A stretch of 63,153 nt of DNA, the filler included, from Malassezia furfur (lineage: Eukaryota), in assembly GCA_052055015.1 (NCBI GenBank). It is 21 parts of 21 records of this genome, joined end to end, with 100 filler letters (N's around TTAATTAATTAA, not from the genome) between each part and the next. Parts side by side here need not be neighbours in the genome. Positions count along the whole stretch, not along the records: positions 60,340 to 63,153 come from JBQJIT010000844.1; 20 more parts are not named here. One strand, given 5' to 3'. A model generated the notes under the pieces. It saw nothing but the letters and a program-made list of their open reading frames with translations. It made no database searches and was not told the origin of the DNA. The position numbers and the translations under genes are program-made. How positions within the stretch are numbered: position 1 is the first letter of the stretch; each line of letters opens with the position of its first letter. Of the stretch, positions 7,078 through 63,153 are shown in pieces.

Positions 7078-7161
7078 GCTCCTATAGCTCAGCTGGCAGA
7101 GCGCAAGACTGAAGCGACGCAGTCGTTCTTGAGGTCACCTGTTCGAACCAGGTTGGGAGCA
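7078..7161 (+). tRNA. tRNA-Phe(GAA) with 11-nt intron (7115-7125)
   Basis: Exons are identical to the upstream copy. Followed by a long oligo-T Pol III terminator. Confidence 0.92.
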
Positions 7162-7162
7162 C

Positions 7163-57419: not shown

Positions 57420-58829
57420 GCGGCCTTGACCTGCTTCTTGTGCTCCTTGCGCTCGTCGCGCTCGCGCTGCCGCCGCGCGTCCGGCGCAAGGTCGTCGGCT
57501 GCCGCCGCCTCGGCGTCGGAACCGCTCGCGTCCGAGTCACTCGCGTCCAAGTCACTCGCGTCCGAGTCGCTCGCGTCCGGCGCGGCCTCCGCCTCCTGCG
57601 GTGCCGCGGCGATGCGCTGCGCGGCCGCCTGCTCTACCTGGTCCAGGCCGGTGACCTGCGCGTAGATCAGTTCCTGCGCCTCGCCCGCCTGCGCCTTGGC
57701 CGCATCACGCTCGGGGTCGTAGAGCTCGTCGAGGTTGCGGGGGAGGTACGACTGCCGGAACACGGCATCCTCGTGCTCCTGCTCAGGCGCGCTCTCCATG
57801 CGCTCCATCATCTGCTCGAGCTCGGCAATGAGCGACGCCTCGGTCTCAGGCGCGTCGTCGCTGCCGCCGTCCTCGGCGGGCGCAGGCACCTCGAGCGCCT
57901 GCTCGTCGTCGTACAGCTTCTCGAGGCCCGCGACGCCGCCTTTACGCGCACGCCCAGTGTCACGCACGACAAAGTGGAACGTGGTACGCAGCCCCAGCGT
58001 CGCGACGCCATGCCGCCCAAAGTAGTCTTCAATGTGCGAAATGTCCTCGCGCAGAAAGTCGAACGCATGGGGGTGGTCGTGCTCGACGGACTGCGACACG
58101 TCGATGATCCACAGGTGGCCCTCGTGGAACAGGATATTGTACTCGCTCAGGTCGGCATGCACCAGGCGGCACCGGTGGTACATGAGGCGCACCGTCGCGA
58201 CCAGCTCGCGGTACAGCCGCGCCCAGTCCTGGGCTGGGATGGCCGATTCGGCGTCCTTGAGCCGCGGGCTCGGCCAGCCGTCGGCATCGCCCAAGAACTG
58301 CATCACCAGCACATGGTCACGCAGCTCGATCGGCTGCGGCGCGCGCAGCTCGGCGTGCACGAGGCGCTTGAGGTTGCGCATCTCCTTCTCGGCCCACAGC
58401 CGCACCATCTTCCGGGGGTTGTGCCGGCTGTACCCGTGCCGGAAACGGAATTCGCCCGAGACGTAGCGGTCGCGGTCCTTGAACACTAGGATGCTCGTCT
58501 TGTAGATCTTAACCGCCGCGCTGCCCGACGTGCCCTCCGGCTGGGCCGGCGGCGTCGTGGCGTGGTATACGTTGGCCTCCTTGCCGGTGCTCACACACCC
58601 ATTCACCTGCTCAAGCAGCTCGCGCTTGATCATTTTGTATAGAATGAGCAGCGTGCGGGGGTCCAGCACCTGCTGCAGAGTCGCGCGGTCCGCCTTGTCC
58701 TTCCGCCGGTTCTCGTCGGTGCGATTCGTCTTGCGGGGCACACGCGCGTCGACGCTGCCGCCCGCGACAAACGACGGGTCGTATTGCTCTTCAATGTGAA
58801 TGCGCGACGCATACTGTGCAAGCGCAGAT
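57420..58829 (-). CDS. RIO1: RIO1 atypical kinase, mirror copy, partial
   Basis: KDKADRAT..QVLDPRT, STGKEANVYHA, AVKIYKTSILVFKDRDRYVSGEFRFR, LVHADLSEYN and IDVSQSVE. Confidence 0.9.
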
Positions 58830-60239
58830 ATCTGCGCTTGCACAGTATGCGTCGCGCATTCACATTGAAGAGCAATACGACCCGTCGTTTGTCGCGGGCG
58901 GCAGCGTCGACGCGCGTGTGCCCCGCAAGACGAATCGCACCGACGAGAACCGGCGGAAGGACAAGGCGGACCGCGCGACTCTGCAGCAGGTGCTGGACCC
59001 CCGCACGCTGCTCATTCTATACAAAATGATCAAGCGCGAGCTGCTTGAGCAGGTGAATGGGTGTGTGAGCACCGGCAAGGAGGCCAACGTATACCACGCC
59101 ACGACGCCGCCGGCCCAGCCGGAGGGCACGTCGGGCAGCGCGGCGGTTAAGATCTACAAGACGAGCATCCTAGTGTTCAAGGACCGCGACCGCTACGTCT
59201 CGGGCGAATTCCGTTTCCGGCACGGGTACAGCCGGCACAACCCCCGGAAGATGGTGCGGCTGTGGGCCGAGAAGGAGATGCGCAACCTCAAGCGCCTCGT
59301 GCACGCCGAGCTGCGCGCGCCGCAGCCGATCGAGCTGCGTGACCATGTGCTGGTGATGCAGTTCTTGGGCGATGCCGACGGCTGGCCGAGCCCGCGGCTC
59401 AAGGACGCCGAATCGGCCATCCCAGCCCAGGACTGGGCGCGGCTGTACCGCGAGCTGGTCGCGACGGTGCGCCTCATGTACCACCGGTGCCGCCTGGTGC
59501 ATGCCGACCTGAGCGAGTACAATATCCTGTTCCACGAGGGCCACCTGTGGATCATCGACGTGTCGCAGTCCGTCGAGCACGACCACCCCCATGCGTTCGA
59601 CTTTCTGCGCGAGGACATTTCGCACATTGAAGACTACTTTGGGCGGCATGGCGTCGCGACGCTGGGGCTGCGTACCACGTTCCACTTTGTCGTGCGTGAC
59701 ACTGGGCGTGCGCGTAAAGGCGGCGTCGCGGGCCTCGAGAAGCTGTACGACGACGAGCAGGCGCTCGAGGTGCCTGCGCCCGCCGAGGACGGCGGCAGCG
59801 ACGACGCGCCTGAGACCGAGGCGTCGCTCATTGCCGAGCTCGAGCAGATGATGGAGCGCATGGAGAGCGCGCCTGAGCAGGAGCACGAGGATGCCGTGTT
59901 CCGGCAGTCGTACCTCCCCCGCAACCTCGACGAGCTCTACGACCCCGAGCGTGATGCGGCCAAGGCGCAGGCGGGCGAGGCGCAGGAACTGATCTACGCG
60001 CAGGTCACCGGCCTGGACCAGGTAGAGCAGGCGGCCGCGCAGCGCATCGCCGCGGCACCGCAGGAGGCGGAGGCCGCGCCGGACGCGAGCGACTCGGACG
60101 CGAGTGACTTGGACGCGAGTGACTCGGACGCGAGCGGTTCCGACGCCGAGGCGGCGGCAGCCGACGACCTTGCGCCGGACGCGCGGCGGCAGCGCGAGCG
60201 CGACGAGCGCAAGGAGCACAAGAAGCAGGTCAAGGCCGC
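58830..60239 (+). CDS. RIO1: RIO1 atypical kinase, partial at both ends
   Basis: Same motifs as the mirror copy. The N-terminus is missing at the fold-back point. Confidence 0.93.
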
Positions 60240-60339: not shown

Positions 60340-61301
60340 TGTCGATCTCCTCGAGCTTCGGGCAGCGCCGCTTGTTCTCCTCCTGCGGCAGCGTGTTGGT
60401 GACGATCAGCGCCTCGAGCTCGCTGTTCGCGATGCGCTCCAGCGCGGGCGGCGACAGAATGCCGTGCGTGACGATCGCCAGGACGCGCTCGGCGCCGCTC
60501 TCGCGCAGCTGCCGCGACGCGAGGTCGAGCGTGCCGCACGTGTCCGCCATGTCGTCTACGAGGATCGCGATCTTGTCGCGCGCGTTGCCGACCAGCACCA
60601 TGCGCGACACCTCGTTCGCCTTCTTGCGCTCCTTATGGAACAGCGCGAAGTCGACGCCCAGCTGGTCGGCCAGCGCCGTGGCGCGCTTCGCACCGCCCGC
60701 GTCGGGCGACACAATCACCACGCGGCTCGTGTCGAGCATCTCGCGCACGTACTGCAGCGCCGCCGGCTCCGAGTACAGGTTGTCGACGGGCACGTTGAAG
60801 AAGCCCTGGATCTGCGACGCGTGAAGGTCCATCGTGATCACATGGTCGCACCCGGCCTGCTCCAGCATGTTGGCAATCAGCCGCGCCGTGATCGGCGCAC
60901 GGCTCTTGTCCTTCTTGTCCTGCCGCGCATAGAAAAAGTGGGGGATCACCGCCGTGACGCGCCGCGCACTGGCCGTCTTGCAGGCGTTGATCATGATAAG
61001 CAGCTCCATGAGGCTCGTGTTCGGCGAGATGAGGCTCCCGTCCACGCCGTGCGACACACACGACGTGTTGATGATGTACACGTCGTGCTCACGCACCGAC
61101 TCGCCCATGCGCACGATCGTCTCGCCCGCCTCGTTCTTCGTTACGGTCGCATTGCCGAGCGGGACCCCGAGACTGCGTCAGTGCACCGACCTACCGCTTG
61201 CACACGAGGTTCGCGAGACCCCGGTGACTCGTCCCTGCCGGTCAGCTGCACACACACGCGCACGTACCGCTGAACACCTTGATATCCGCCAGCGTCGCCA
61301 T
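60340..61301 (-). CDS. PRS: Ribose-phosphate pyrophosphokinase (PRPP synthetase), 3'-partial; introns 61235-61267 (33 nt) and 61173-61194 (22 nt)
   Basis: Spliced [67 protein letters not shown] and [10 protein letters not shown]. Confidence 0.95.
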
Positions 61302-61475
61302 GTCGTCGTCCGTGCCTAAGCGGCACCCGAAAGCGATTTTCAGCTTAATTCCCCGACCTGCGCCGGCGCTCGGGGGCACAGACGCACGCGCCCGGGCATG
61401 GTGCATTGAGGTCGTCGTCGGAGTGCGCCTAAGCCGCCCCGCGCGCGTGCACGCGTGCTGGGGGACACAAGGCAT

Positions 61476-61501
61476 GCACACACACGCACACACGCACACA
61501 C
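61476..61501. repeat. Imperfect (CA)n microsatellite between SMD1 and PRS
   Basis: cacacacacgcacacacgcacac. Confidence 0.65.
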
Positions 61502-61599
61502 CCAACTACCTACATAGACCACACACGCCCCACAGCCCCACTGCCATGCATAATACAGGATTCACTGGCTGCTCTACCTCGGCGACGTCGCCAAGCACA

Positions 61600-62180
61600 T
61601 CACGGCCGGCCGCGGCCACGGCCACGCATACCACGGCCACGGCCACGGTCGCCACGGCCCCGTGCGGCCGGCGCATTGGGGTCGCGCTTCGATTTCGGCC
61701 GCGGCGCATCGTCGACCAGCAGCGTATCGAGCGGCAGCGCATCGGGCAAAATCCAGTACCGCGTGTTGTTGCCCCGGATCGAGAGCGTATCCAGCGTGAT
61801 CGGCTCACGCCCACGCACCGTGAGCTTGACATTTTTGAGGTGGGTATTCATCTGCACATCGACACCTGCATAAGTCGTGGAGTGGGCGCCGCGCGCACGC
61901 CGCGCGCACGCCACCAAGCTGCTGCGCACTTCGGACGCATCTGCTTGCGCCTCTGCCGCACGCACTGCGACATGCGCGGCGCTAGATTACCGCGCACGTC
62001 GCACGCTGCACGCTGTGCGTGCGTCGCACGAGCAGCGCGCGCGCGCGCCCGCTCCGGCATACGTACCAGTGACCGTGCCATGGACAATCGTCCCGTTCTT
62101 CAACTCGATCGTGACGCTCTCATTGTTGAGCTTCATCAAGAAGCTGCGTCAGCGCGCACCACCTACCGAACCAACTTCAT
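61600..62180 (-). CDS. SMD1: Small nuclear ribonucleoprotein Sm D1; introns 62144-62166 (23 nt) and 61866-62066 (201 nt)
   Basis: Spliced [44 protein letters not shown]...[23 protein letters not shown] plus an RG-repeat tail. Confidence 0.96.
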
Positions 62181-62270
62181 CTTGGTCGCAGCGAAGACGG
62201 CGACGGCCCGGTCACGTGACGATACAGCCGCGCGGGGCTCGACGCGTCGAGCAACGCTACGCGTGCCGCG
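62181..62270. promoter_or_regulatory. 90-nt bidirectional SMD1/EXO1 promoter with GTCACGTGAC and two ACGCGT (MCB-like) boxes
   Basis: GTCACGTGAC at 62211-62220, palindrome GCTCGACGCGTCGAGC at 62237-62252, ACGCGT at 62259-62264. Confidence 0.6.
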
Positions 62271-63153
62271 ATGGGCATCGCCGGGCTGCTCCCCCTGCTG
62301 AAGGATATCCAGGAGGCGACGCATGTCGAAAAGTACCGCGGAAAGACGGTCGGGATCGACGCGTACGTGTGGCTGCACCGCGGCGCGTATGCGTGTGCGT
62401 CCGACCTGGCGCTCGGTCGGCCCACGACGCGCTACGTCGCGTACGCGGTGCACCGGATCCGTATGCTGCGGCACTATGGCGTGATCCCGTACGTGGTGTT
62501 CGATGGCGGGCCGCTGCCGAGCAAGGCGGGCACCGAGGCGGAGCGCGCAGCGTACGTCCCTCTTGGCTCACCCAGGAAACGCGCCGAGCACCGTGCCAAA
62601 GGCCTCGCGCTGCACCAGCAGAACAAGGGGTCTGCGGCGCGCGACGCGTTTGTGCGGTGCGTCGACGTGACGCCGGCGATGGCGCACGAGCTGATCCGCG
62701 TGCTGCGCGCCGAGGGCATCGCGTACGTCGTGGCGCCGTACGAGGCCGACGCCCAACTCGCGTACATGGAGCGGCACGGCCTCATCGACGCGATCATCAC
62801 CGAGGACTCGGACCTGCTCGTGTTCGGGTGCAAGACGGTGCTGTTCAAGCTGGACACGTACGGCCACTGCGTCGAGGTGCAGCAGGCGCGCTTTGCGTCC
62901 ACGCAGCAGATCTCGCTCGAGGGCTGGGGCGCCGACGAGTTCCGGCGCATGGCGATCCTCTCGGGCTGCGACTACCTGCCGTCGATCGTCGGCATGGGGC
63001 TCAAGAACGCGCACCGCTTCTTGCGGCGCTACGAGTCCGTAGACAACGTGCTGCGTGCGCTGCGCCTCGAGGGGAAGCTGCGCGTCCCGCCGAGCTACGC
63101 GGACGACTTCCGCCGCGCCGAGTTCACCTTTGTGCACCAGCGCGTGTGGGACC
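62271..63153 (+). CDS. EXO1: Exonuclease 1 (XPG/RAD2 family), 3'-partial; intron 62552-62575 (24 nt); absent from the ORF track
   Basis: Manual translation gives MGIAGLLPLLK...GKTVGIDAYVWLHRGAYAC, VFDGGPLPSK.GTE.ER, VAPYEADAQLAY, ITEDSDLLVFG and ILSGCDYLPSI.GMGLKNA. Confidence 0.95.
   Translation, partial: MGIAGLLPLLKDIQEATHVEKYRGKTVGIDAYVWLHRGAYACASDLALGRPTTRYVAYAVHRIRMLRHYGVIPYVVFDGGPLPSKAGTEAERAAYVPLGSPRKRAEHRAKGLALHQQNKGSAARDAFVRCVDVTPAMAHELIRVLRAEGIAYVVAPYEADAQLAYMERHGLIDAIITEDSDLLVFGCKTVLFKLDTYGHCVEVQQARFASTQQISLEGWGADEFRRMAILSGCDYLPSIVGMGLKNAHRFLRRYESVDNVLRALRLEGKLRVPPSYADDFRRAEFTFVHQRVWD

Follow-up and report, generated by a model that had tools for sequence, protein, structure and literature searches.

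A long self-folding intron in the SmD1 gene of Malassezia furfur, a probable expansion of an ancestral mini-intron

Structured introns and mini-introns

In S. cerevisiae, zipper stems have been described in the introns of RPS17B/RP51B, RPL7A, RPL7B and others (PMC12350175, PMC2536676, PMC12311795). As PMC12350175 presents them, a segment after the 5' splice site pairs with a segment before the branch point, giving a shorter effective distance from 5' splice site to branch. Fungal introner-like elements, in the account drawn on here (PMC3609843), exceed the regular introns of their genomes, have stable predicted structures, and occur in hundreds of near-identical copies, each a whole intron with its own splice signals. 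The introns of Malassezia are of another kind, with a mean of 30 bp tabulated for M. sympodialis (PMC5389616, Table 2) and a median of 30 and mean of 37.2 for M. restricta (PMC9241646, Table 1). Our literature search turned up no paper on nuclear introns in Malassezia that are long or structured.

Here we describe the second intron of the SmD1 gene of Malassezia furfur, which lies within a stretch of 63,153 nt that we analysed as a whole (the window). We consider it probable that this intron is a lineage-specific, repeat-built and GC-rich expansion of an ancestral mini-intron, tolerated since the added sequence loops itself out. It shares with Malassezia-type mini-introns its donor, its branch-to-AG spacing and its position in the gene, where the orthologous introns are 23-57 nt, and differs from them by 177 additional nucleotides. 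As in the zipper-stem introns, predicted pairing loops out the middle of a long intron, and the branch sequence departs slightly from the consensus, as does that of RPL7B. The differences from the yeast systems concern proportion, geometry and evidence. The looped-out part makes up 88% of SmD1 intron 2, where normal introns are 22-33 nt. The predicted closing helix leaves 11 nt on the 5' side and 7 nt before the branch A, compared with the 20 required in the S. cerevisiae A complex model of PMC12350175, distances that would come close to the modelled limits with the outer ~10 pairs opened. Lastly, the SmD1 structure is known here from prediction, and its closure is no better than that of shuffled controls. 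The yeast criteria may not carry over, because whole introns here are shorter than the linker in those criteria. By analogy, SmD1 intron 2 may follow the same principle as the budding-yeast zipper stems. Its likeness to introner-like elements (PMC3609843) lies in exceeding the regular introns of its genome and in its stable predicted structure; in contrast to them, its insert was seen once in 63 kb and is framed by ancestral signals.

The SmD1 gene and its second intron

The window is split into 21 pieces by 20 linkers (44 N, TTAATTAATTAA and 44 N) between positions 2984 and 60339. The 20 complete pieces decrease steadily from about 2980 to 2820 nt, and the window stops partway through the last one. 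All are small contigs from a fragmented draft that were strung together by size, and neighbourhood across a linker is meaningless. One of them, 57420-60239, is a perfect palindrome of two 1410-nt arms, 100% complementary and without a spacer, in which one gene fragment occurs twice in opposite orientations. This palindrome is most likely an assembly or amplification chimera, and it is the source of a -170 kcal/mol outlier in our folding scan. ARAGORN called a 'tRNA-???' at 7078-7162 whose anticodon has four bases (gcga); this call, in GC-rich sequence, is probably false.

The final piece (60340-63153) carries three genes identified with Pfam: ribose-phosphate pyrophosphokinase (PRS) and the Sm-fold gene SmD1 on the minus strand, and an XPG/EXO1-like nuclease on the plus strand. 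The XPG/EXO1-like gene is divergent from SmD1 and starts 91 bp upstream of its start codon, with 90 bp (62181-62270) between the two start codons. The SmD1 gene is composed of the following parts.

62167..62180, minus strand: exon 1, 14 nt, ATG at 62180-62178, in frame with exon 2 across a 23-nt intron
62144..62166, minus strand: intron 1, 23 nt, GTAGGT...CTGAC-GCAG, a typical mini-intron, with an intron at the equivalent place in the three closest related loci
62067..62143, minus strand: exon 2, 77 nt, LSM profile positions 2-25, its peptide present in 72 of 80 related loci
61866..62066, minus strand: intron 2, 201 nt, phase 1, GT-AG, 71.6% GC
61603..61865, minus strand: exon 3, with an RG-rich tail, matching the LSM profile and SmD1 chains; stop codon at 61602-61600

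Exon 3 matches solved SmD1 chains with E-values of 2e-33 to 1e-31 in an alignment that starts at chain residue 32, and exons 1 and 2 with the split Gly codon account for exactly 31 residues. In the LSM profile, exon 2 and exon 3 (positions 28-63) correspond to adjoining parts. Because the LSM profile and the SmD1 residue numbering are both continuous across the junction, the 201 nt are one intron, without coding sequence or a hidden exon. The proposal that this long intron (GTACGT...CTTATGCAG) is real was borne out, in that its removal restores both the reading frame and the protein alignment to the LSM profile and the SmD1 chains. Compared with each of its three closest relatives, the gene shows 33-40 synonymous and 9 non-synonymous codon differences and is, therefore, in use.

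The signals at the ends of intron 2 are those of a U2-type GT-AG intron: a GT donor, an AG acceptor and, at the normal spacing upstream of the acceptor, a branch motif. As RNA, it starts with GUACGU and ends with CUUAUGCAG.

62061..62066, minus strand: 5' splice site GUACGU, which fits the GTRNGT donors of other introns in the window
61870..61874, minus strand: branch motif CUUAU, intron positions 193-197, branch A at 61871

CUUAU is the sole CU.A[CU] motif in the whole intron. After its branch A come 5 nt, the last two being AG, a spacing that by-eye comparison found to be identical in the mini-introns.

Elsewhere in the window, introns were defined by joining coding segments through compatible GT..AG intervals, with a GTRNGT-type donor and a CT[ACG]AC branch required, a search that UTR introns would escape. 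The 12 introns re-derived with full donor and branch signals are all 22-32 nt long, and 4 more were recognised by eye in the SmD1 piece, namely SmD1 intron 1 (23 nt), one in the XPG gene (24 nt) and two in PRS (33 and 22 nt). No second long intron was found among the introns definable in the 63-kb window. The original prediction had set SmD1 intron 2 apart as far longer than 27 other introns; the contrast in length holds, with 16 other introns of 22-33 nt and none long, on a smaller number than was claimed.

Some minor features of these genes were also recorded. At the start of PRS (61173-61265, minus strand), a 40-nt micro-exon lies between the mini-introns of 33 and 22 nt (recognised by eye). 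The 24-nt intron of the XPG-like gene (62554-62577) is a multiple of three in length and has no stop codon, and its retention would add just 8 residues. The long SmD1 intron itself begins 114 nt inside the gene, near the shared divergent SmD1/XPG promoter region, where it may have a role at the level of DNA.

The insert and its history in related loci

Scanning metagenome contigs with the exon-3 peptide, we fetched 80 loci, 72 of which also have exon 2 upstream. An intervening sequence occupies the intron site in 64 of these 72 loci and is missing from the other 8 (median 60 nt, with a few boundaries approximate). At the three closest loci, the intron at the site of SmD1 intron 2 measures 28 nt (L001), 57 nt (L002) and 23 nt (L003). 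These loci share 88-92% amino acid identity with the window over aligned exon 3 and 77-80% nucleotide identity over 87 codons, and their GC contents are 62%, 54% and 66%, respectively. They are also syntenic with the window: all three have an XPG-like gene upstream on the opposite strand, and L002 and L003 have PRS downstream, the contig of L001 ending before the position of PRS. The PRS matches (E 1e-129 and 4e-93) are in frame; the matches upstream of SmD1 (E 9e-17 to 5e-11) were obtained with an XPG query one base out of frame and reflect conserved DNA read in a shared shifted frame.

Intron ends were compared by eye, as a MAFFT alignment of the four SmD1 loci misplaced the 3' part owing to the insert. 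The L003 intron, GTACGTGGACGAGACTTACGCAG, is essentially the ends of the intron in the window, GTACGTATGCC and ACGACTTATGCAG, minus 177 nt. Length and structure in orthologues had been set beforehand as a test of conservation, and the outcome was negative, since the three syntenic introns are 23, 28 and 57 nt long. The available relatives are about 20% diverged in exon nucleotides, and it is possible that the insert is conserved among relatives nearer than that. The description of the SmD1 branch site as deviant is correct for the final U of CTTAT, where C is usual; this last base (C to U) is unique to the window. It is not correct for the T at the third position, which is ancestral, as the 57-nt intron of L002 and the 23-nt intron of L003 both contain CTTAC. 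The presence of CTTAY in an intron of 23 nt means that the "weak" branch predates the long intron and is unlinked to it.

The additional sequence can be delimited as a discrete insert.

61879..62055, minus strand: lineage-specific GC-rich insert, 177 nt, intron positions 12-188, missing in the three closest orthologues
61887..61912, minus strand: perfect tandem repeat in the insert, 11-nt unit x 2.4

The insert (62055..61879) is bounded by the predicted closing helix, and what lies outside, 11 + 13 nt, amounts to a 24-nt mini-intron. It is 72% GC, in a window of 69% GC, and is made up mostly of GCGTGCG-type units that form short direct and inverted repeats. Besides the 11-nt unit, a 7-nt unit is repeated 2.1 times, each of these tandem repeats with 100% matches, and six more direct-repeat families are present. 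The 11-nt repeat would be a sign of slippage-type growth, and repeat content is likewise the basis on which we suggest that the insert grew by local duplication. At L002:2942-2998, the 57-nt intron contains a tandem duplication with a unit of about 10 nt (GGCGACGAAA), which in sequence reads as an independent, smaller expansion of the SmD1 intron. With a tandem duplication in L002 too, the SmD1 intron therefore appears to grow by slippage in more than one lineage.

Alternatively, the insert could stem from a mobile or fold-back element, small, non-autonomous and of introner-like or MITE-like type, which inserted itself into a mini-intron that was already there. The discrete boundaries of the insert, its lack in the orthologues, and its ends, which form an 11-nt imperfect terminal inverted repeat (GGAGCGGGCGC / GCGCCCACTCC), are what such an element would leave, and the long, stably folding introner-like elements of fungi (PMC3609843) offer a precedent. 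We nevertheless regard this reading as unlikely. No second copy was found in the 63-kb window, a small sample of the genome, where the best blastn-short matches were 13-19 nt of GC-rich simple sequence, and a search of the same window for paired terminal repeats returned just chance matches in which each arm had 2 mismatches. The insert has no visible target-site duplication at its flanks, its interior is short-repeat sequence, and the splice sites were not supplied by it, being ancestral and common to the orthologues that lack it.

In a draft of poor quality, the insert could also have arisen as an assembly artefact. The contigs joined in the window are each roughly 3 kb long, and one of them is the perfect 2820-nt palindrome that is most likely a chimera. 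The insert, however, is imperfect and repeat-rich, with G-U pairs and mismatches, rather than a perfect inverted copy; it has no matches elsewhere in its own contig; and it sits exactly within an intron whose flanking exons and gene order are intact. We therefore consider an artefact very unlikely, and return to expansion of a mini-intron as the probable origin of SmD1 intron 2.

Predicted fold and what it may do

The predicted fold of intron 2 comprises a closing helix at the ends of the insert, a long GC arm and a central hairpin, with pair probabilities for the closing helix and the central hairpin computed in a 401-nt pre-mRNA context.

62046..62055, minus strand: 5' arm of the closing helix, intron positions 12-21, pair probabilities 0.99-1.0
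61879..61888, minus strand: 3' arm of the closing helix, intron positions 179-188
61966..62003, minus strand: central hairpin of 14-15 bp with one internal G-U pair and a loop of 8-10 nt, 14 of the 15 pairs having probabilities of 0.99 or more

Several inverted repeats had been pointed out in the original prediction, and most of them recur in this fold. The 14-bp stem (61966-61979 with 61990-62003, 10 nt between) is the central hairpin, to which one added U-G pair gives 15 bp and an 8-nt loop. The CGCACGCAC/GTGCGTGCG pair lies within a longer inverted repeat and is part of the minimum free energy (MFE) structure, with a pair probability of about 0.55. The GC-rich arms noted near donor and acceptor correspond to the closing helix (intron positions 12-21 with 179-188, probability at least 0.99). 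With the long GC arm included, the predicted pairs between intron positions 12-42 and 157-188 number 29, of which the outermost 9 reach a probability of at least 0.99; in its pairing, this predicted stem is in keeping with the zipper-stem definition of PMC12350175. Pairing of GCTGCT with AGCAGC is possible as proposed, but the MFE structure gives 62031-62036 other partners.

Folding against dinucleotide shuffles, the control called for at the outset, showed intron 2 to be more stable than most of them, at -122.8 kcal/mol compared with -112.95 +/- 4.31 (z -2.29, 6 of 200 as good). Of 1140 native 201-nt segments taken from the two strands, 11 fold as stably; of the 392 that are GC-matched, 0 do. 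When the splice signals were kept unpaired, the MFE was -122.2 kcal/mol, a value reached by 0 of 150 shuffles (-109.8 +/- 4.1) and by 0 of 150 native GC-matched inserts (-90.4 +/- 8.6). The central hairpin is unremarkable alone, as a stem of at least 14 bp arose in 88 of 1000 shuffles, and the overall self-complementarity of the insert was equalled by 19 of 500. As modelled, then, the structure of SmD1 intron 2 would be moderately beyond chance.

These data suggest the following model. An old intron site would have held an ancestral mini-intron of about 24 nt, which gained the 177-nt GC-rich insert and kept its ancestral splice signals at the ends, GUACGU on the 5' side and, on the 3' side, CUUAU with the branch A and 5 nt to the AG. 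The insert would pair with itself through the closing helix at its extreme ends, the long GC arm and the 15-bp central hairpin, so that in the folded pre-mRNA just 11 + 13 nt would be single-stranded between donor and acceptor. A spliceosome used to introns of 22-33 nt could then handle SmD1 intron 2 like a mini-intron from which a stem domain is looped out. Under this model, the fold would form in vivo and would be what permits splicing.

The idea that folding shrinks the intron fared unevenly. The predicted fold does loop out 177 nt and leave 11 + 13 nt unpaired, but this outcome is generic, and shuffles do likewise. The predicted path from 5' splice site to branch motif is about 10-11 steps, and, between identical ends, a path as short or shorter was given by 66 of 150 dinucleotide-shuffled sequences and by 65 of 150 native inserts matched for GC. 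In a run based only on MFE end distances, with the splice sites free to pair, 91 of 200 shuffles brought the ends as close, in agreement with the run in which the signals were unpaired. End closure is therefore generic for GC-rich RNA of such size and, being no better than in controls, is not to be called an adaptation. The ends of long RNAs tend to lie near each other as a general rule. It is plausible that this generic closure is the reason why the insert is tolerated, rather than evidence of selection.

One could go further and propose that SmD1 intron 2 is spliced only because the insert zips away, the insert perhaps being a young fold-back or introner-like element, newly landed. We doubt that this stronger version is correct. 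If zip-out were needed for splicing, the intron would offer a natural experiment on how long an intron a mini-intron spliceosome can take. A required fold would also make it a compact natural substrate for how a spliceosome of ~25-nt introns handles a long one, and would carry the zipper-stem principle beyond budding yeast, to a genome of the basidiomycete mini-intron type. Under the expansion that we favour, the intron mainly illustrates a route by which mini-introns may grow, through repeat-driven, GC-rich expansion that is self-folding by chance. Most of its apparent significance is removed by the comparison with orthologues and by the shuffled-insert control. Most likely, the insert is tolerated extra sequence, and we see no sign that its structure has been selected for some separate function.

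The prospect that had made this intron attractive was that of a splicing-feedback element in a core Sm gene. As a regulatory device, it would act through regulated retention, tuning SmD1, perhaps with spliceosome or Sm levels, by bringing a TAA (61989-61987) into frame.

61987..61989, minus strand: first in-frame stop codon upon intron retention, TAA, at the 5' edge of the hairpin loop

Retention would thus lead to a premature stop, and the final U of the branch motif in place of the usual C could be taken as a weak signal suited to such control, were it not that CTTAY also occurs in the orthologous introns of 23 nt and 57 nt, where it is not coupled to structure. The fold is predicted to be more stable than controls, yet neither length nor structure is conserved in the three syntenic orthologues. 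Autoregulation of another Sm gene in animals, via a poison exon, counts in favour of the idea. Sm proteins bind a U-rich Sm site, and SmD1 intron 2 contains no RAU(3-6)GR motif and no U run of at least 3. An informal look revealed no mutually exclusive alternative fold, and literature on autoregulation through SmD1 introns in fungi was not found. In yeast, RPL7B is autoregulated and has both a zipper stem and a branch point that departs from the consensus (PMC12311795); compared with autoregulatory introns of the RPL7B/RPL30 type, SmD1 intron 2 has neither a structure conserved in the three syntenic orthologues nor an Sm site for the gene's own product. The proposal of a splicing-feedback element was, therefore, not upheld, given orthologous introns of 23, 28 and 57 nt, CTTAC in short introns as well, and no Sm site, and we regard a regulatory role as quite unlikely. 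Structure and a core splicing gene are insufficient to infer regulation.

It had also been suggested that the intron hosts a stable non-coding RNA, which could be a snoRNA, a miRNA-like hairpin or another type. Many fungal snoRNAs are intronic, and the intron does contain a stable predicted hairpin domain. We searched it for the C (RUGAUGA), D (CUGA) and H (ANANNA) boxes and a 3'-terminal ACA; as had been noted before, C/D and H/ACA boxes are lacking on the sense strand, the lone ACA being at position 51. The Rfam search proposed as a check, run permissively on both strands of 61000-63153, gave 8 matches, all far below gathering scores, the best of them miRNA models at 20-21 bits (gathering 62-80) with E-values of 1-7. 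A tRNA scan found none in or near the intron. With no Rfam match near a gathering score, no snoRNA box and no conservation of the intron, the suggestion did not survive, and a hosted RNA is extremely improbable.

Long introns at the equivalent site also occur among the distant SmD1 loci. One of these, L064:1025-1234 (63% exon-3 identity, GC 59%), has an intron of 210 nt that is strongly structured (-95.8 kcal/mol, z -4.1 compared with 60 shuffles). For 11 other long GT..AG orthologous introns, |z| was below 1 in 9, and z was -1.9 in one and -2.3 in one.
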